Shown here: positions 24 to 7,349 of the stretch, piece by piece
How the letters are laid out: each line of letters starts with the position of its first letter
Numbering within the stretch: position 1 is the first letter of the stretch
NCBI GenBank assembly: GCA_963811165.1
Contig: CAWEQH010000001.1
Coordinates: 1 to 64,000, forward strand
DNA length: 64,000 nt
Source: an uncultured Nitrospiraceae bacterium
Lineage (GTDB): Bacteria; Nitrospirota; Thermodesulfovibrionia; Thermodesulfovibrionales; UBA6898
Direction of reading: 5' to 3'
Made by a program: the position numbers and the translations under genes
The notes under the pieces: generated by a model
The model's database searches: none
What the model saw: only the letters and a program-made list of their open reading frames with translations
Told to the model about the DNA's origin: nothing

Positions 24-512
24 TTAAGCTTTCAGGCCGACTTTCTTGATACTGCTCAGCAGATTCTCTACTTCTGCAGTTTCCGGGGTAGTCTGGAGCA
101 TATCGAGAGGAACGCGGCCGCCGAGGCCAGTCTGTTTGCTATTAAGCCATTCGAGCACGGATGCTTTGTCCTCGAAGACATTTACTGCGAGCGCAACGAT
201 CCTGGCAACGCGGTAGAGCCTGTCGCTTTGAACAAGCGAAAGCCTCTCTCCTGCCGACATATTCGCTCTTTTCCTTTTACGTGATACAGTACTGGCGCTC
301 ACGCCGACCATCCGCGCTATGAAGTGGTCGGTTAAGCCCCATTTTCTATTCATATGGGATATCACTTCAGCCGGCATGCCTCTTAAAATAAGGGCATGCC
401 AGTCCATGCTGTTCTTAATCTTATGTCCGAGGACCTTAGTGCCGCCCAGAACGTCGGCTGTTGTCATCATCCTCATATAGCGGCGGCGATGAATATTGGG
501 ACTGTATCTCAT
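24..512 (-). CDS. Xre/MbcA/ParS-family antitoxin (HTH + DUF2384-like C-terminus)
   Basis: HTH-like 'IARMVGVSASTVSRK' and 'SDRLYRVARIVALAVNVFED...WLNSKQTGLGGRVPLDML' pattern; ATGA overlap with upstream kinase stop. Confidence 0.8.
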   Translation of the reverse strand: MRYSPNIHRRRYMRMMTTADVLGGTKVLGHKIKNSMDWHALILRGMPAEVISHMNRKWGLTDHFIARMVGVSASTVSRKRKRANMSAGERLSLVQSDRLYRVARIVALAVNVFEDKASVLEWLNSKQTGLGGRVPLDMLQTTPETAEVENLLSSIKKVGLKA

Positions 513-1024
513 AGTATCCAGAATTCCAATTCCCCCGTGGCCTTCTCAAAAACTTCCTGAGGCGTCAGCTTTGTCGTATCTATCTCGATTTCTGAAGGCA
601 GATCCTTAAAATGCTTGAACATCTTTCTTACAAATTCATATTTGTCCCGATACTCATCGCTAAACAGCCAATCTTCGCCCCGCTCACTCTTCTTTTTCTT
701 GCCGAGCCTCTCGTAAAGGACCTTTCTCAGCGCTGTCAGCTTGATCGTCACAATCCTTGAGAATGGAAATGCATCTCTTAGAAATCGCTCCCTGCAGTTT
801 AGACCGGTCGTTTCAAGAATGCAGTTCGCCCACTTCCGTCTTGAAAGGTCCCGAAAAAGGGCCACCCATGCATCTGCTTCACCTTCGACGGTCGAGGGAA
901 ACTTGGCACGATATGCGCCGATATAATACACCGGCAGCCGATAAAACGATGAAAGCTTTTTGCCAAGCGTTGTCTTCCCTGCGCCGGGAAGGCCGATTAT
1001 GTGAAGGATGGGAAGAGGAACCAT
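509..1024 (-). CDS. P-loop kinase (AAA_18/AAA_33, NMP/polynucleotide-kinase-like)
   Basis: N-terminal Walker A 'IIGLPGAGKTT', 'CILET' Walker-B-like strand, C-terminal 'IEIDTTKLTPQEV'; ATG at 1024 preferred over TTG at 1060. Confidence 0.75.
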   Translation of the reverse strand: MVPLPILHIIGLPGAGKTTLGKKLSSFYRLPVYYIGAYRAKFPSTVEGEADAWVALFRDLSRRKWANCILETTGLNCRERFLRDAFPFSRIVTIKLTALRKVLYERLGKKKKSERGEDWLFSDEYRDKYEFVRKMFKHFKDLPSEIEIDTTKLTPQEVFEKATGELEFWIL

Positions 1025-1171
1025 GAAATAACGCTTATTTAAAAATGCCAGTCGTCCCAATGCAACGTTATGATAGATAGATGCCTCATCAAATGATCAG
1101 GGATTATACTGACCATGCCAACATCATCGGCGAGCTGGATGTTCGAAATGTGTCAAGTTCATCGTAAAGGC

Positions 1172-1380
1172 CAGAGACGCGGAGCCGGCAGGTAACAAGT
1201 AAACTGTAAGACTGTAAAAAGTAAGCCGTCATTTGTAAACCGTAAGATGGTGTATAGGGGTTCGCGGCCCACGCTATTCTTCTTTAAGGTGGATAAATAG
1301 CTTCACCACCCCCGATTTACGCTATCGGGCTTCGGGCTATCCTGCCTCACGGCAGTTTCGCACTTGCTCCCCTGTCTCTG
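1172..1380 (-). ncRNA. Candidate structured ncRNA (~209 nt) with UUAC heptamer-period repeats, directly downstream of the DIP1984-like gene
   Basis: Closing helices CAGAGAC/GUCUCUG (1374-1380 with 1172-1178) and GGAGC/GCUCC (1366-1370 with 1181-1185); hairpins at 1342-1355 (GUGA tetraloop), 1311-1329, 1288-1310, 1254-1277; repeats at 1192-1245; no ORF. Confidence 0.65.
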
Positions 1381-1387
1381 TCTTATC

Positions 1388-1916
1388 CTATTCGTCTTTA
1401 TAGTTTACCGTCGCCGAATGATTAGCCGCATGAACCTGGTTGACCAGACGTCTGAGATGCCGGAGGCTGTCCTGGTACTCCTTGTATGTTTCAGTGAACT
1501 TGTGGCGCGGTTCCTGGACTATATCGCGTCCTTCCTTATGAATCACACGCCTGTAAGAAGACTTTTCAACCCGCGCGGCAATAGCCTTAATGTCGCCAAG
1601 CAAATTCTTCCTGACCTCTAAGGCCTCCGCAATTGATATTTCCTTGCCCTCATATTCGATCTGCGTGCTCGAAATTCGTCTTTTGAATCTCCTGGTTGAG
1701 TTTGACCCGTTTGGTCTGAAGTTTTTTGAGTCTGTTTTCGATCTCTTTCTGATTGAAGTCCGCTGCCGGGTCTTTGTCTTCATCATCGTCATTAAAGAGC
1801 CTCCGCTTTTTGGAAGATTCACCGAGAAGGCCCTCCAACAGTTCCACATGGCGGTCATACTCGTTCCTGAGTTCAATGGCTTCATAAAGGTAGAGATTCC
1901 CTTTTTTATCCGGCAT
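1388..1916 (-). CDS. DIP1984/DUF6847-like coiled-coil protein (one extra-base frameshift near 1666)
   Basis: ORFs 1650..1916 and 1388..1885 join at TNFE|TQIEY (GAG C ACG); two-fold internal repeat 'LYEAIELRN...LNQEIQKTNF' / 'IAEALEVRK...LVNQVHAANH'; RBS AGGAGG. Confidence 0.65.
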
Positions 1917-1948: not shown

Positions 1949-1993
1949 TATTATACATGCAGGTATATATTAAGTCAACTATTATACATGTAT
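1949..1993. promoter_or_regulatory. Candidate paired operators between the divergent DIP1984-like and repressor genes
   Basis: TATTATACATG occurs twice; palindromes TATACatgcagGTATA (1952-1967) and ATACATGTAT (1984-1993). Confidence 0.5.
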
Positions 1994-2033: not shown

Positions 2034-2654
2034 GTGGAAAATCTCGGGCGGCGCTTAAAATACTATAGAGAACAAATCGGATTATCACAGATTGATCTGA
2101 GTGAGAAGAGTAACATCTCTCAGGCCAGCATAGCACGAATAGAATCAGGGAAACAGAAGAACCTCAAGAGAGAGACAATGAAGAGACTTGCCGATGGACT
2201 GGGCATTTCCTTAACTCAGCTCATGGAGCCTGTCACTGTGGTGAGGGAAGAGGAAGCCGTCTACGCCTCGGCAAGAATAGTGCCCGTCTTAGAAATAAAA
2301 GATATTGATGCCATGAAAGACCTGGGCGCCTCGGCCAGGAAGACCGATACCTCCGAACCTTCCCTGTCCTCAGACAAGAATGCCTTCTATCTCAAGGTTA
2401 CGGCGGGTCTCACTGTCCGGCCCGTCATAGAAGAAGGGGACTTGATCTTAATTGAACCGAAAGCGGAGATTAAGGAAGGCGATATAGTCCTTTTTCTATC
2501 GGCTGAAAAGAAATGTCTCGGTAAAATTTACTACCCTTACGATAATCTGCTGATTCAACCTCTTGATCAGGATTTGCCGCCTGTCATGCTCAGAAAAAAA
2601 GAAAAGAACAGGCGTCCCATAAAAATACTTCGAGTCAGCGGGATAAAGAAATAA
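2034..2654 (+). CDS. XRE-family HTH repressor with degenerate S24 peptidase-like C-terminal domain
   Basis: 'LGRRLKYYREQIGLSQIDLSEKSNISQASIARIESG' HTH; 'AFYLKV...PVIEEGDLILIEP...GDIVL' S24-like fold. Confidence 0.85.
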   Translation: MENLGRRLKYYREQIGLSQIDLSEKSNISQASIARIESGKQKNLKRETMKRLADGLGISLTQLMEPVTVVREEEAVYASARIVPVLEIKDIDAMKDLGASARKTDTSEPSLSSDKNAFYLKVTAGLTVRPVIEEGDLILIEPKAEIKEGDIVLFLSAEKKCLGKIYYPYDNLLIQPLDQDLPPVMLRKKEKNRRPIKILRVSGIKK

Positions 2655-3027: not shown

Positions 3028-3570
3028 TTAGGATGTGGTCATACCCGACACGAATTGCGACGACGTACCCGCTACGGTTCTGAAAGCCACTCCCAGAAGA
3101 CCGTTGCGCAAGAATTCGGTTGCGAGGCAGAAGAAGATGCCATCGTTAACAATTTTTTCTTCCTTTAGTGCATGGAACGCTTTTATAAGGTTGTTAATCT
3201 TGTAGTCTGTCGGGCAAAGTACGATCACCGTGCCCGTCATTGACACTATTTTACGAATTAATGTTCCAGACGAACGAGTACCTTCATCCAGTTCGATTTT
3301 TAGATACTTAACGTGTGTTCTGCATTCTGACTCGATAATGTCCGTCAAGACGATTAGATCCGGATACGTCGCTCTTCTTTCAGCAGCATTGACCTCTATC
3401 GTCCAGTAAGGATGCACGATACATTTTTCTAATTTGGCCTTATCTTGATTAATCGCTCTTATTACCTTCCTAACGCGGATTTCATGTTTTCGCAGCCAGC
3501 TTATCTTTTTAGTCTTTCTCGAAACTGTCCTGAACACATTTCCCGGCATTGCTGCGTTTCGTCTTTTCAT
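3028..3570 (-). CDS. Replication-relaxation (Replic_Relax)-like PD-(D/E)xK protein lacking the N-terminal wHTH
   Basis: 'KHEIRV', 'YPDLIV', 'IELDEGT' motifs; RBS AGGAGG. Confidence 0.6.
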   Translation of the reverse strand: MKRRNAAMPGNVFRTVSRKTKKISWLRKHEIRVRKVIRAINQDKAKLEKCIVHPYWTIEVNAAERRATYPDLIVLTDIIESECRTHVKYLKIELDEGTRSSGTLIRKIVSMTGTVIVLCPTDYKINNLIKAFHALKEEKIVNDGIFFCLATEFLRNGLLGVAFRTVAGTSSQFVSGMTTS

Positions 3571-3694
3571 TTGTCCTCCTTTGAAATATTCCTAAGAGAA
3601 TATTACTTGGCGTTATGCCTTCTCATCGGTCGGCAATTTCACGCGTTCGTGCAGTGTCTCACAACACATAGGCAATTCGCTTGAAAGATTTGGA

Positions 3695-3713
3695 TTGCGA
3701 CACCGTGTCGCAA
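3695..3713. promoter_or_regulatory. Candidate parS-like palindrome, copy 1
   Basis: TTGCGACAC-C-GTGTCGCAA; 15-bp core repeated at 4819-4833 upstream of parB. Confidence 0.6.
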
Positions 3714-3714
3714 G

Positions 3715-4464
3715 TCAAACGTCGTCAAGATTTAGGTAAATCGTATCCTCCGTGGAAGTGATGTACCTTGTGTGTAGATCATTGCGAAAGAAATCTTCCA
3801 GAAGTGTAAATCCCACGTTACCTTTTCCAGAGAAATAAGTCTTGGAACAAGCATCCCGGAGATTGGTGAGGCGTGTTTCGTTATTGCACATAATGACAAG
3901 GGGCTCCCGGCTGGCTTGCTCTGTGATACGGCGGACCATTTTGGTAATCACTACTTTGCCGAGGTCAACCTCGATGTTCATATTAATGCTGCGATTTCTC
4001 AGTTGGAAAATAACGTTAAGGTCAGGAATAGGGGCCCTTGATCTTTTTTTACGATATTGTTTCAGTACGTTTGAGTCCGTGAAGCTGTATTTATAATGAT
4101 CCCTGATGGTGGCTGTATGGATCACATGGAGGACAGCAGTGACGTTCAACTCGTGCCTGACAAAGAAAGTTGTCGGCAAACCAACACGCATACTCTCCTT
4201 GGGACAGCCGAGTTCTGCCAGCACGTCGGCGCTTAACCGGGTCAAAGCGTAAATGCTGAAGTTACCGTGCCGTTTTCTATATGACTCTTTTCGCCTGGCA
4301 ATGTAGCCGGCGCGATGAAGTATCGACAGTCGCCGTAGAAGTGCGGGCTCGCTGATGCCATATTCAAAAGCTTTGGTTAGAAGGCGCAGCAGCATTTTGA
4401 AGGTTGAAACGCCGAGAGCCAGTGCCTTGAGGATGTCGATGTCCCTGCTTGTCAGATTCACCAT
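3715..4464 (-). CDS. Replication-relaxation (Replic_Relax) family protein, wHTH + nuclease
   Basis: 'LTSRDIDIL', 'RRLSILHRAGYI', 'IYALT', 'RHELNV', 'IPDL', 'IEVDLG' motif order. Confidence 0.7.
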   Translation of the reverse strand: MVNLTSRDIDILKALALGVSTFKMLLRLLTKAFEYGISEPALLRRLSILHRAGYIARRKESYRKRHGNFSIYALTRLSADVLAELGCPKESMRVGLPTTFFVRHELNVTAVLHVIHTATIRDHYKYSFTDSNVLKQYRKKRSRAPIPDLNVIFQLRNRSINMNIEVDLGKVVITKMVRRITEQASREPLVIMCNNETRLTNLRDACSKTYFSGKGNVGFTLLEDFFRNDLHTRYITSTEDTIYLNLDDV

Positions 4465-4818
4465 AGTTTGTTCTTGCCTATAAGGATATTACCGGCCGGG
4501 TTGGTAAAGCCAAGGCTCACAAGAAAATCGGCTGAAACACAGCAGGATAATCAAAGTTTTAAGGGTGGACCAAATATGAGAGAGAAAGGATAGAGCTGGG
4601 CCTTTGTCTCGATCCATAACTGCTTGAAATAACAAGCTCTTTCCGGAGTTTTGCCTTGTCTGCCGCCTTATGGGCCACCTGAGGGGTCACCTGAGGGTTT
4701 TAGACTGCTACTCGCGCTGGAGCCTCTGGAGCGAGTCCGGATCAGAGGAGTCGAAGTAGAGTGGATATAAGCCCTTGTCTGAGCCCTCCAACAGTACCCT
4801 GCAAGGAGAATTTCTCGC

Positions 4819-4833
4819 GCGACACCGTGTCGC
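4819..4833. promoter_or_regulatory. Candidate parS-like palindrome, copy 2
   Basis: GCGACACCGTGTCGC, identical to the core of 3695-3713; about 75 bp upstream of parB. Confidence 0.6.
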
Positions 4834-4906
4834 ATCGAATCGGGGATAGGAGCGGCCAAAAGTAATATTCCTTTAGATTGATAAAACCCAGGAAGGAGAT
4901 CGGTCC

Positions 4907-5791
4907 ATGGGTATCTTTTCAAAAAGGGGCGCAGAGGCCCTCAAGAAGATTGTCGGCACTGAGGAGGTTTCAACCCCCTCAGTTGAAACGTTGTCGGCTG
5001 ACGTCAAGCAGGGGGTAATACAACTACCCGTGAATGACATAGCTCCCAGCCCTTACCAGCCCCGGATACTTTTCAACGATGAAAACTTGGCATCCCTCTC
5101 GGAGTCGCTCAAGGAGCAGGGCGTACTTCAGCCACTTATCGTGAGGAAAACATATACCGGATTTGAACTGGTCGCAGGAGAACGGAGACTGAGAGCGGCA
5201 AAGCTGGCAGGACTGACCGCAGTCCCGGCCATTATGAAGGAGTTGGATGATAAGGATGCAATGATTCTTTCTCTAACGGAGAACCTTCAAAGGGAAGACC
5301 TCAGTGTTGTTGAAAAGACCTTGGCGATCGGATCGCTGAAAGCTCGAATTGGTGACACGGAAGCCACCGCCCGTGCCTTGGCACTTACGAAGAGGAGCAT
5401 CGAAAGATATGCGAGGATCTATTCCGTTATAGGAGCGTCCGATACGTTCCTGTCTGTCTCCATGAAAAATGCTCATTTGATAGATTTCAGGGACGCCGAG
5501 GCCCTGGCGAATATAGGCCGGTATCTTCGGCCGGAAGAGTTCACTAAGTTTTTTGACCTCGTAAAAAGTGAGGGAATAAAGCGGGCAATAAAGCATTACC
5601 GCAATCCTCTAAGATCAAGCCTTGCCCAGAATTTCGGGCGGCAACCGGTCCGCTGCACAGTCAAAGAAACGGAAACCTGCGTCCGACTGCAGATACGATA
5701 CGAAAAGGGTGAGCAACTCAAGGCCGAGGACAAGAAAAAGCTGCAAGAAAAGTTTGATGACTTCCTGTTGAGGATCGAAAAGCCGAAATGA
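4907..5791 (+). CDS. parB: ParB/Spo0J-family partition protein
   Basis: 'PYQPR', 'GVLQPLIVR', 'LVAGERRLRAA', 'ENLQREDL' motifs, then HTH. Confidence 0.9.
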   Translation: MGIFSKRGAEALKKIVGTEEVSTPSVETLSADVKQGVIQLPVNDIAPSPYQPRILFNDENLASLSESLKEQGVLQPLIVRKTYTGFELVAGERRLRAAKLAGLTAVPAIMKELDDKDAMILSLTENLQREDLSVVEKTLAIGSLKARIGDTEATARALALTKRSIERYARIYSVIGASDTFLSVSMKNAHLIDFRDAEALANIGRYLRPEEFTKFFDLVKSEGIKRAIKHYRNPLRSSLAQNFGRQPVRCTVKETETCVRLQIRYEKGEQLKAEDKKKLQEKFDDFLLRIEKPK

Positions 5792-5899
5792 GTTCTACGC
5801 TCGACGATAATATCTATTTGTGGAAGACCATTCTGCCGTGGCGGGATGAAAGATATTCTACTTATCAACTTGGGAGAAAGAGCTCAGCAGGGAGAAGAC

Positions 5900-6181
5900 T
5901 TGAATAGATTCTCTCTCCCTCAGCAGTCCCAGGAGAGCGCAGTGGGAAGACTTCTCACCGCCGAACAGGTGGCGGAAATCATTTGTTGCTCACCGAAGAC
6001 CGTGTATAGCTGGGCTGAACTCGGTCATATCCCATCGATCAAAATCGGCAATGGACGGAAAGCCCTTCTTCGGTTCGACTCCGAAGAAATTCATGCCTGG
6101 CTACAGTTCTGGAAAGCGGAAACTGCAAAGAGGTATAATTCAGGTGCTGGAACTGTTGCCGGTGTCCGGAAAGGTGGATAG
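5900..6181 (+). CDS. Excisionase-like HTH_17 DNA-binding protein
   Basis: 'LLTAEQVAEIICCSPKTVYSWAELGHIPSIKIG...LRFD'; directly upstream of integrase; start uncertain. Confidence 0.85.
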   Translation: MNRFSLPQQSQESAVGRLLTAEQVAEIICCSPKTVYSWAELGHIPSIKIGNGRKALLRFDSEEIHAWLQFWKAETAKRYNSGAGTVAGVRKGG

Positions 6182-6186
6182 AAATT

Positions 6187-7248
6187 ATGGGCATTTACAA
6201 GAAAGGCAACACCTACTGGATGATAAAACAGTACCGAGGGAAGAAGGTCGAGAGGTCTCTCGACACATCGGTCAAAAGAAGCGCAGAGGAAAGGTATTCA
6301 AAAATAGTTTCCGAGATTGTCGACGGAAGCTATTTCCAGAAGCCGAAGGACTTCACCATTTCGTATCTGATAGCAAAATACATGGAAGATCGAGTATCGA
6401 CCAAGGCAAGCAATACCCTGGCAAGAGATAAGAGCCTGCGTGAACATATCATTGCCAACTTCGGCGCATATCTTCTCGCCGAGGTGACATCTGAGATGGT
6501 CTCGGAATACCGCAGTAAACGCTATGCCGAGAAAAAGAGCGTTGCTACCGTCAACAGGGAATTGACATTTCTTCGGAACGCCTATAATGTCGCTATCAGG
6601 CATTATAAGTGGTGCTTCGTTAATCCCGTCTCTTCCCTAAAGTTCGACAGGGAGAAAAGCGGACGGGACAGGTGGCTGACGGTGGAACAGGAAACCGCGT
6701 TACTCTCCAAGTGCGAAGGCAGACTGCACGAAATCGTTCGTCTCGTTCTCAATACCGGATTGCGTCAGGATGAAGTGCTCAGTCTCACACGGGCAGGCGT
6801 AGACCTGTTCCGCAGGACCGTGACAGTCAGGGGCAAGGGTGACAAAATCCGGACGATTCCCCTCAATACAGCCGCGTTAGAAATCCTCAAGGTGAAGATG
6901 AAGACAAGGCATATCAGCAGCGACTTGGTGTTTCCAAGCGGGGCCGGAACAAAAATCATCAGACAGAGACTTGTAAGGGCATTCTCAAAGGCCGCGAAGG
7001 ACGCAGAGCTTGTGGACTTTCACTTTCACGACCTTCGCCACACCTTCGCCACAAGGCTCGCCCAAGCCGGCGTAGACCTTTACAAGATAGCGAAGCTGCT
7101 GGGTCACAACGATGTTTCTACAACCCAGCGTTACGCTCACCACTGCCCCGAGAGTTTACGGAGTAGCGTGGACATCCTGCAAAACTACTACAATTTTACT
7201 ACAGTTGCGTCCGATGACGAAAAAGAGCCTGTGCATGTCTCAGGGTAA
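6187..7248 (+). CDS. Tyrosine recombinase/integrase
   Basis: Catalytic R (TGLR), K (GKGDK), HDLRH, LGH, Y (TQRY). Confidence 0.95.
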   Translation: MGIYKKGNTYWMIKQYRGKKVERSLDTSVKRSAEERYSKIVSEIVDGSYFQKPKDFTISYLIAKYMEDRVSTKASNTLARDKSLREHIIANFGAYLLAEVTSEMVSEYRSKRYAEKKSVATVNRELTFLRNAYNVAIRHYKWCFVNPVSSLKFDREKSGRDRWLTVEQETALLSKCEGRLHEIVRLVLNTGLRQDEVLSLTRAGVDLFRRTVTVRGKGDKIRTIPLNTAALEILKVKMKTRHISSDLVFPSGAGTKIIRQRLVRAFSKAAKDAELVDFHFHDLRHTFATRLAQAGVDLYKIAKLLGHNDVSTTQRYAHHCPESLRSSVDILQNYYNFTTVASDDEKEPVHVSG

Positions 7249-7272
7249 TTTATTGTTTTCTAAGGAAAAATA

Positions 7273-7349
7273 TGGTGCCCCCTGCATGATTCGAACATGC
7301 GGCCCCAGGTTTAGGAAACCTGTGCTCTATCCTACTGAGCTAAGGGGGC
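7273..7349 (-). tRNA. tRNA-Arg (anticodon CCT)
   Basis: Reverse complement GCCCCCTTAGCTCAGTAGGATAGAGCACAGGTTTCCTAAACCTG...GTTCGAATC...GGGGGCACCA; cloverleaf with encoded CCA. Confidence 0.95.

Follow-up and report, generated by a model that had tools for sequence, protein, structure and literature searches.

A DIP1984-fold protein gene and the closed, eight-repeat RNA encoded behind it: a candidate type of bacterial ribonucleoprotein

Near the start of contig CAWEQH010000001.1 (assembly GCA_963811165.1), from an uncultured Nitrospiraceae bacterium, a small gene of the DUF6847/DIP1984 type is followed on the same strand by a segment without open reading frames, raising the question of whether gene and segment belong together and what they might make. 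The window, i.e., the stretch analysed here, comprises the first 64,000 nucleotides of this contig. A sequence-only reading had described the segment as a structured RNA with a periodic array of UUAC-type units, on which the protein was proposed to oligomerise. Comparative analysis of homologous loci makes it probable that the gene product and the RNA form a physical ribonucleoprotein (RNP). The features of the locus are collected in Table 1.

Table 1. Features of the locus, in window coordinates.
Feature	Position	Strand	Basis or remark
Divergent HTH + S24 peptidase (cI/LexA-like) repressor	2034..2654	+	in 21/80 loci, not constant
Sigma70-type promoter-like site TTGACT-17-TATAAT, ahead of gene	1950..1978	-	11/12 matches
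DUF6847/DIP1984-fold gene, ~175 aa in homologs, split here near 1667-1671	1388..1916	-	homolog comparison; fold model
Structured RNA, 209 nt, paired ends	1172..1380	-	profile and covariance-model matches, covariation
Closing stem, 5' strand: GAGAC, internal loop, GGAGC	1366..1380	-	covariation
Conserved core: AAG-N-GC-R-A, GNRA-capped hairpin (1355-1342), invariant UAGCCC	1331..1365	-	covariation, alignments
Second hairpin, CCCGAU/AUCGGG	1311..1329	-	covariation
H-type pseudoknot: GGUGG/CCACC stem, loop GCUAU with AUAGC across A-rich linker; UUAC clade only	1273..1310	-	covariation
Eight-unit UUAC tract, neutral linkers	1192..1245	-	spacing 7,7,7,7,8,7,7 in RNA direction
Closing stem, 3' strand	1172..1185	-	covariation

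The gene ends in a TAG stop codon at 1390-1388, and its reading frame is split by one extra base that is absent from five close homologs and from a relative's metatranscriptome contig. Since the gene is intact in the homologs, a programmed frameshift is unlikely; most of the 91 homologs found with the C-terminal half as query are 175-178 aa long. Against the DUF6847 profile (cut-off 27 bits), the halves of the window gene score 17-18 bits, whereas intact homologs reach 30.3 and 27.0 bits and others 20-28; the NF038048 score is 28 against a cut-off of 70. The AlphaFold2 model of one homolog, P0094 (pLDDT 93), is long and helical and includes two short beta hairpins, and its sole significant match in the PDB is 3kdq (Foldseek E 2e-4, TM 0.71; VIA Z 12.8, rmsd 2.8, 151 residues aligned), the structure of Corynebacterium diphtheriae DIP1984, an entry with four chains. 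According to this model, the protein of the window subfamily has the DIP1984 fold. The subfamily thus shares its fold with DIP1984/DUF6847 (PF20935, NF038048, 3kdq) but differs in comprising 175-aa proteins that score at or under the curated cut-offs. Uncharacterised proteins of large phages also match the P0094 model by structure, and no enzyme fold was recognised in the structural comparison. A relation to AcrIIC4, suggested by a PDB sequence search (E 0.005), was dismissed, as the match is confined to a charged loop and the fold gives it no support. Net charge is near neutral in two of the three homologous proteins counted. The two-fold internal repeat ascribed to the protein was recovered, weakly to clearly, in all four homologs compared (shuffle p 0.05, 0.01, 0.001, and <0.001).

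The RNA segment was located as previously described, beginning 7 nt past the stop codon with its two ends paired, and it likewise proved assignable to no recognised family: covariance-model searches of Rfam 15 gave no match at E≤5 for the window RNA and none at E≤1 for 10 homologous loci. The expectation that homologs would carry a conserved RNA downstream was borne out in two collections. A metagenome scan yielded 119 relatives, of which 80 were retained, and a nucleotide profile built from 65 of these detected the RNA behind the gene in 76; three of the four misses have no more than 2 nt of downstream DNA, and one has 328 nt. A scan of species genomes yielded 126 relatives (80 independent loci retained), and a covariance model built from 37 metagenome RNAs detected the RNA in 74 of the 80 loci at E≤0.1 and in 72 at E≤0.01. 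Among the six misses, both conserved motifs are present in three to four, the 3' stem alone or chiefly in one to two, and neither in one. The hosts of these relatives include Latescibacterota, Desulfobacterota, Spirochaetia, Verrucomicrobiota, Acidobacteriota, Gemmatimonadota, SAR324, Aerophobetes, Bacteroidia, and two archaeal bins.

The linkage is tight, with a median distance of 7 nt between protein match and RNA and less than 50 nt in 134 of 146 loci, and it is kept across 830-930 nt of inserted toxin-antitoxin (TA) genes in five loci. When the search was started from the RNA, matches were found in 7 of 54 genomes of the window's family and in none of the seven others of its genus; three of the four strong new or repeated matches have the gene, while an intact RNA at L200 has no gene within the 810 nt of contig upstream. 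The distribution is patchy and mobile, and two queries found no relatives in viral contigs. Three side observations concern RNA copies and insertions. At L065, a second, decayed copy has its 5' and 3' parts ~1.2 kb apart (860-960 and 2120-2240), and L076 carries a duplicated module with a truncated gene. The loci with TA genes between gene and RNA (L071, L074-L077) have a perfect T-arm hairpin inserted just before the repeat tract; in the UUAC clade, a T-arm occurs at only five loci.

The promoter-like site ahead of the gene likely drives both gene and RNA, and similar hexamers stand 5' of the gene in close homologs. One metatranscriptome contig spans the gene and RNA of a relative, although such contigs lack ends and strand and a single transcript is not implied. 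Contigs of relatives cover the RNA in three RNA runs, two of them covering the RNA only; these runs have no DNA control, and missing coverage of the gene is uninformative.

Folded alone, the window RNA is only modestly more stable than its shuffles (z -1.64, with 11 of 200 shuffles as good), and the support for its structure is therefore comparative. Among 37 UUAC-clade RNAs, the 34 named pairs are 98.4% paired, and 19 of the 34 show double changes. The 82 double-change cells observed, against 20 in shuffles and 3-5 when the pairing was slid, exceed all 500 shuffles and all slid controls, although the sequences are related and the counts are not probabilities. The terminal stem, three hairpins, and the pseudoknot all covary in this alignment, as the sequence-only reading required. 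Of the four hairpins that had been drawn, three are upheld in this way, whereas the outer stem of the fourth is unsupported because its AUAGC strand pairs in the pseudoknot. The latter had been suggested with any of three AUAGC copies; loop GCUAU (1301-1297) pairs with the third (1277-1273), being 95.7% paired with double changes in four of five pairs. A variable hairpin following the pseudoknot was seen by eye in the alignment.

In a second protein clade, whose repeats carry a different word (see below), 32 RNAs show 99.1% pairing in the closing stem and first hairpin, with double changes in 16 of 20 pairs, and the pseudoknot is absent from the alignment. The unpaired core is invariant across the two clades, which share 30-50% protein identity. 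Because the loop of the GNRA hairpin reads GUGA, GCGA, or GCAA in all 76 loops parsed, the strand of the RNA is fixed.

The repeat array was confirmed on the plus strand, with GTAA at 1192, 1199, 1206, 1214, 1221, 1235, and 1242 and GTCA at 1228, and no second cluster of six GTAA/TTAC within 60 nt exists anywhere in the 3.66-Mb genome. Its 7-nt periodicity is conserved (lag 7, z 23.6 in 59 UUAC-clade tracts). All 59 distinct tracts parse as eight units with a fifth gap of 8 nt; the parse was forced to eight units and is controlled by shuffles, which score 15.5 compared to 27.9. The long fifth gap occurs in 57 of 57 tracts, compared to 68 of 171 in the shuffle control, and no ninth unit is present on either side of the tract (scores 1.8 and 1.6 of 4). 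That the tract is unpaired, as had been supposed, holds for the consensus fold, and the tract is poor in G (11%), but the mean pairing probability computed from single sequences is 0.48 compared to 0.60 for the rest of the RNA (53 RNAs, pseudoknot unmodelled).

Units and linkers evolve differently. Unit letters are conserved (0.74-0.94), whereas linkers diverge as do the fourfold-degenerate sites of the gene (linker/site values of 0.86/0.86, 0.75/0.70, 0.53/0.53, and 0.40/0.38); the two divergences are equal in all bins from 60 to >90% protein identity, with linkers diverging slightly less below. There are 53 distinct linker strings among the 59 tracts, and the window and its two closest homologs have identical linkers. 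A structural scaffold predicts this combination of a fixed unit number and geometry with conserved units and freely varying linkers.

The second clade also has eight units, with the word AGC/AAC at a spacing of 7-8 nt (lag 8, z 12.5 in 66 tracts), and its fifth gap is 9 nt in the eight commonest spacing patterns. The repeat word is matched by residues 163 and 166 of the protein: 56 of 57 UUAC proteins have H-N at these positions, and all 63 AGC proteins have R-S/A/G. On the protein tree, repeat type requires two changes, compared to ~40 for shuffled labels, and one of the two reflects a mislabelled locus (L134); the match between repeat and residue therefore appears to be essentially one evolutionary switch rather than independent co-evolution. 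Two loci, L169 and L171, have a UUAC tract and residues H-N-H, yet are AGC-type at most other diagnostic positions, a small hint of independent evidence for the match. Binding of the protein to the repeats is thus indirectly supported by the fixed unit number and the clade-linked letters, and because eight even repeats change their letters with the protein lineage, the protein likely assembles on them.

A related arrangement is found behind classical DIP1984 genes. At 15 such loci, ~200 nt of non-coding DNA with paired ends and shared motifs follow the gene, and AC recurs in these sister RNAs at a 7-nt period (z 6.4); many of them contain a GGUUCRA T-arm. Their hosts are Nitrospirota-level relatives, Desulfobacterota, Bacteroidota (one classical locus in a sample of 201 genomes), Paracoccus, Actinobacteria, a cyanobacterium, Psychrobacter, and Acinetobacter. 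A closed RNA downstream of the gene is common to both groups, whereas the RNA sequence differs: the covariance model of the window subfamily (R1) matched none of four sister RNAs, and the only Rfam match at sister loci was a weak one to the tRNA model, inside the RNA of L183. Both kinds occur together at L175 (G070:C104), where ~1.6 kb separates a subfamily gene from a divergently oriented classical DIP1984 gene that has an RNA of its own; a cI-like repressor accompanies each of the two.

One sister RNA locus, in Acinetobacter, sits between rtcB and rtcA. It provides the only RtcB match among all loci compared, and RtcB was found beside none of the loci of the window subfamily; the rtcB of the window genome is on another contig. 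Adjacency to the cyclase gene is also given in a supplementary row of PMC6182133, and the first places searched in that supplement hold no sRNA row at the sister locus. On an Acinetobacter plasmid (L180:1362-1620), the gene labelled septicolysin encodes a DIP1984 protein, and behind it lies a closed-end RNA whose repeats read TTAC/TAAC. This speaks against the toxin label, which the gene bears on >300 Acinetobacter plasmid records. Phage homologs of DIP1984 are located in tRNA clusters. In Bacillus phage phiAGATE, the interval between a DIP1984-like gene and tRNA-Met (L177:4519-4970) consists of 450 nt of non-coding DNA that is rich in hairpins, has no Rfam match, and likely represents a phage sister RNA. 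In Acinetobacter phage ME3 (L196), 530 nt of non-coding DNA lie upstream of the homolog, and a tRNA-like element is situated 125 nt downstream of it.

The genomic surroundings vary. The sequence-only reading took the module for cargo of an integrative element under its own repressor. In the window, such an element is likely: positions 3028-7349 hold a Replic_Relax-like gene, ParB, an HTH_17 excisionase-like gene, and a tyrosine integrase beside tRNA-Arg(CCT), which together constitute an integrative-element module; the left end of the element lies beyond the contig start. Most homologs, by contrast, reside in TA clusters or ordinary chromosome, and context is stable and chromosomal at the Latescibacterota and Spirochaetia loci. 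The divergent cI-like repressor likely regulates the module, and such a repressor also stands beside all four classical DIP1984 genes of the phylum. Neighbours are otherwise unconserved, being assorted TA genes (PIN, HicAB, HepT/MNT, TumE, AbiE, DUF433), and the regions upstream of the gene are not conserved among homologs. PADLOC gave no family match, and the comparison with type III TA systems yielded no toxin family match. No recurrent reverse transcriptase, as expected of a retron or DRT, was found among the neighbour clusters; the neighbours of the 80 genome loci entered this comparison clustered, without a Pfam scan.

Several other elements were recorded. The 3' half of tRNA-Arg(CCT) recurs as a 54-nt, 96% copy at G000:C8:21634-21687, beside a stretch resembling an island, and this copy may represent an att half-site. 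Downstream of the RNA (window 24-1060) lie an AAA/kinase-like gene and an Xre/MbcA antitoxin gene, which recur in 6 of 80 and 3 of 80 loci, respectively, among close homologs; no RES toxin accompanies the antitoxin before the contig end. Two long perfect inverted repeats 3' of the repressor gene (2657-2720 and 2927-2977) gave only weak matches to miRNA models.

A mechanism may be proposed from these observations. One transcript would carry gene and RNA, and the closed-end RNA would likely be freed by processing. The protein would oligomerise along the eight units, with the tract serving as its landing pad and each protein site recognising a fixed word of three or four bases, UUAC in one clade and AGC in the second. 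The predicted reading surface is the end of the C-terminal helix, with H163/N166 in one clade and R/S in the other, and the eight sites could be supplied by a tetramer of two-fold-repeat subunits or by an octamer. The invariant folded core might then be the working surface, by analogy with the tRNA-like domain of Y RNA. Action of the RNP under RNA stress is the weakest step, borrowed from the sister loci. Taken as a whole, the proposal that the protein oligomerises on the eight repeats into a fixed-size RNP, likely acting when cellular RNA is damaged, has about an even chance of being correct. 

Other explanations assign the locus a different role. In an RNA-antitoxin or abortive defence system, the RNA would keep a harmful oligomer inactive until its loss or cleavage on infection frees the protein. 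A patchy two-part module amid TA genes and under a cI-like repressor would suit such a role, and the pseudoknot resembles those of type III antitoxins. The RNA, however, lies downstream of the gene and forms one closed domain rather than tandem 30-60-nt repeats, the protein has no recognised enzyme fold, PADLOC assigns no family, and the context in Latescibacterota and Spirochaetia loci is stable and chromosomal; this reading is unlikely, although compatible with the same physical RNP. Still less likely is a cis-acting 3' mRNA element, a reading in which the protein or another factor would bind the repeats and adjust how stable its own message is or how it is translated. The short distance from the stop codon (median 7 nt over 146 loci), the metatranscriptome contig joining gene and RNA, and the lack of a strong internal promoter and of an intrinsic terminator after the RNA all fit this idea. 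Nevertheless, closed ends, an invariant unpaired core, and a pseudoknot exceed the needs of a stability element, the RNA stays intact behind inserted genes, and autoregulation of a lone non-enzymatic protein lacks a rationale.

The RNA might instead be active by itself, as a ribozyme, ligand sensor, or sponge for another protein, with the gene as an accessory or passenger. Conservation of the unpaired core between such distant clades and the one possible orphan RNA (L200) speak for this, but near-total linkage to the gene, repeat letters that track the protein clade, and the sister RNAs behind classical DIP1984 genes make it very unlikely. The most striking rival, a gapped guide like that of VIPR, is more improbable again. 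In this case protomers would clamp UUAC and expose three-base linkers for pairing with a nucleic-acid target, and both the alternation of fixed and variable bases with a pseudoknotted handle, as in the available description of vrRNA (10.64898/2026.04.26.720920), and the many distinct linker strings are suggestive. However, linkers change at the synonymous rate instead of being hypervariable and are the same in the window and its two closest homologs, and the best gapped match in the window's own genome (17-18 of 22, skips 0-4) equals that of shuffles. Neutral linkers and the lack of a gapped target in the own genome therefore argue against a VIPR-type guide, as do a single RNA per locus, a constant unit number, a helical non-RAMP protein, and the lack of relatives in viral contigs.

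An RNP assembled from the gene product and its own RNA remains the preferred interpretation. A database of 20,149 RNA-protein clusters may contain the window RNA, and the period-7 and period-8 clusters described in the accessible part of that work are different, being inverted arrays without a protein partner (10.64898/2026.10.21.760802). No RNA partner or function for DIP1984, DUF6847, septicolysin, 3KDQ, PF20935, or NF038048 was found in the full-text literature, a corpus from which subscription papers are mostly absent. The DIP1984 family may have been mentioned earlier, in RNA-repair operons, by Burroughs and Aravind in 2016. The protein-RNA system is real, belongs to no known RNP family, and is apparently unpublished. 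It would assign a class of function to a family whose structure is solved but unexplained, and whose members on Acinetobacter plasmids widely bear the wrong name 'septicolysin', would add a new type of bacterial RNP, and would offer a testable recognition code with two natural clades, two repeat words, eight sites, and three candidate residues.

Known systems resemble this one in part. TRAP and CsrB-type repeat readers recognise a single short motif at each protein site, and the spacers between motifs are uninformative; their folds are unrelated to the present one, and here the repeats belong to a dedicated closed RNA encoded after the gene of the protein itself. In type III TA systems of the ToxIN kind, a pseudoknotted RNA is encoded as tandem repeats upstream of an endoribonuclease in TA-rich mobile regions, whereas the present RNA is a single domain downstream of a gene in which no nuclease fold is recognised. 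VIPR, as far as the accessible text describes it, combines a RAMP/RRM protein (Vipr) with a vrRNA of 9-16 pentamer repeats that have hypervariable NN and address gapped DNA targets (10.64898/2026.04.26.720920). The likeness extends to a small protein with an RNA, fixed short motifs between variable bases, and a pseudoknotted part; the differences from that description are a helical protein, eight units of 7-8 nt, neutral linkers, and no gapped target in the own genome. Ro60/Rsr with Y RNA, in the accessible description of the operon arrangement rsr-yrlBA-rtcBA (PMC7790460), likewise pairs a protein with a cis-encoded closed-end RNA, and the tRNA-like arm of some members and the one sister locus in an rtcB-rtcA operon add to the resemblance. 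By comparison with that account, the present subfamily has no TROVE protein (PF05731 matched nothing in the 95%-complete genome or among 32 neighbour representatives), no Rfam match to Y RNA, and no position beside rtcB, while its periodic tract is absent from the Y RNA descriptions compared. The broader proposal, which seems as apt to prove right as wrong, is that DIP1984-fold proteins supply the protein component of a widespread but overlooked prokaryotic RNP class in which an eight-site helical oligomer would read a short lineage-specific code (UUAC, AGC, YAC) on its own cis-encoded RNA via two or three exchangeable residues and display a folded domain, tRNA-like in some cases, that acts during RNA damage or conflict. 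If true, these proteins would constitute a scaffold for RNA binding that is naturally reprogrammable and has no relation to Sm, TRAP, RAMP, or Ro60.
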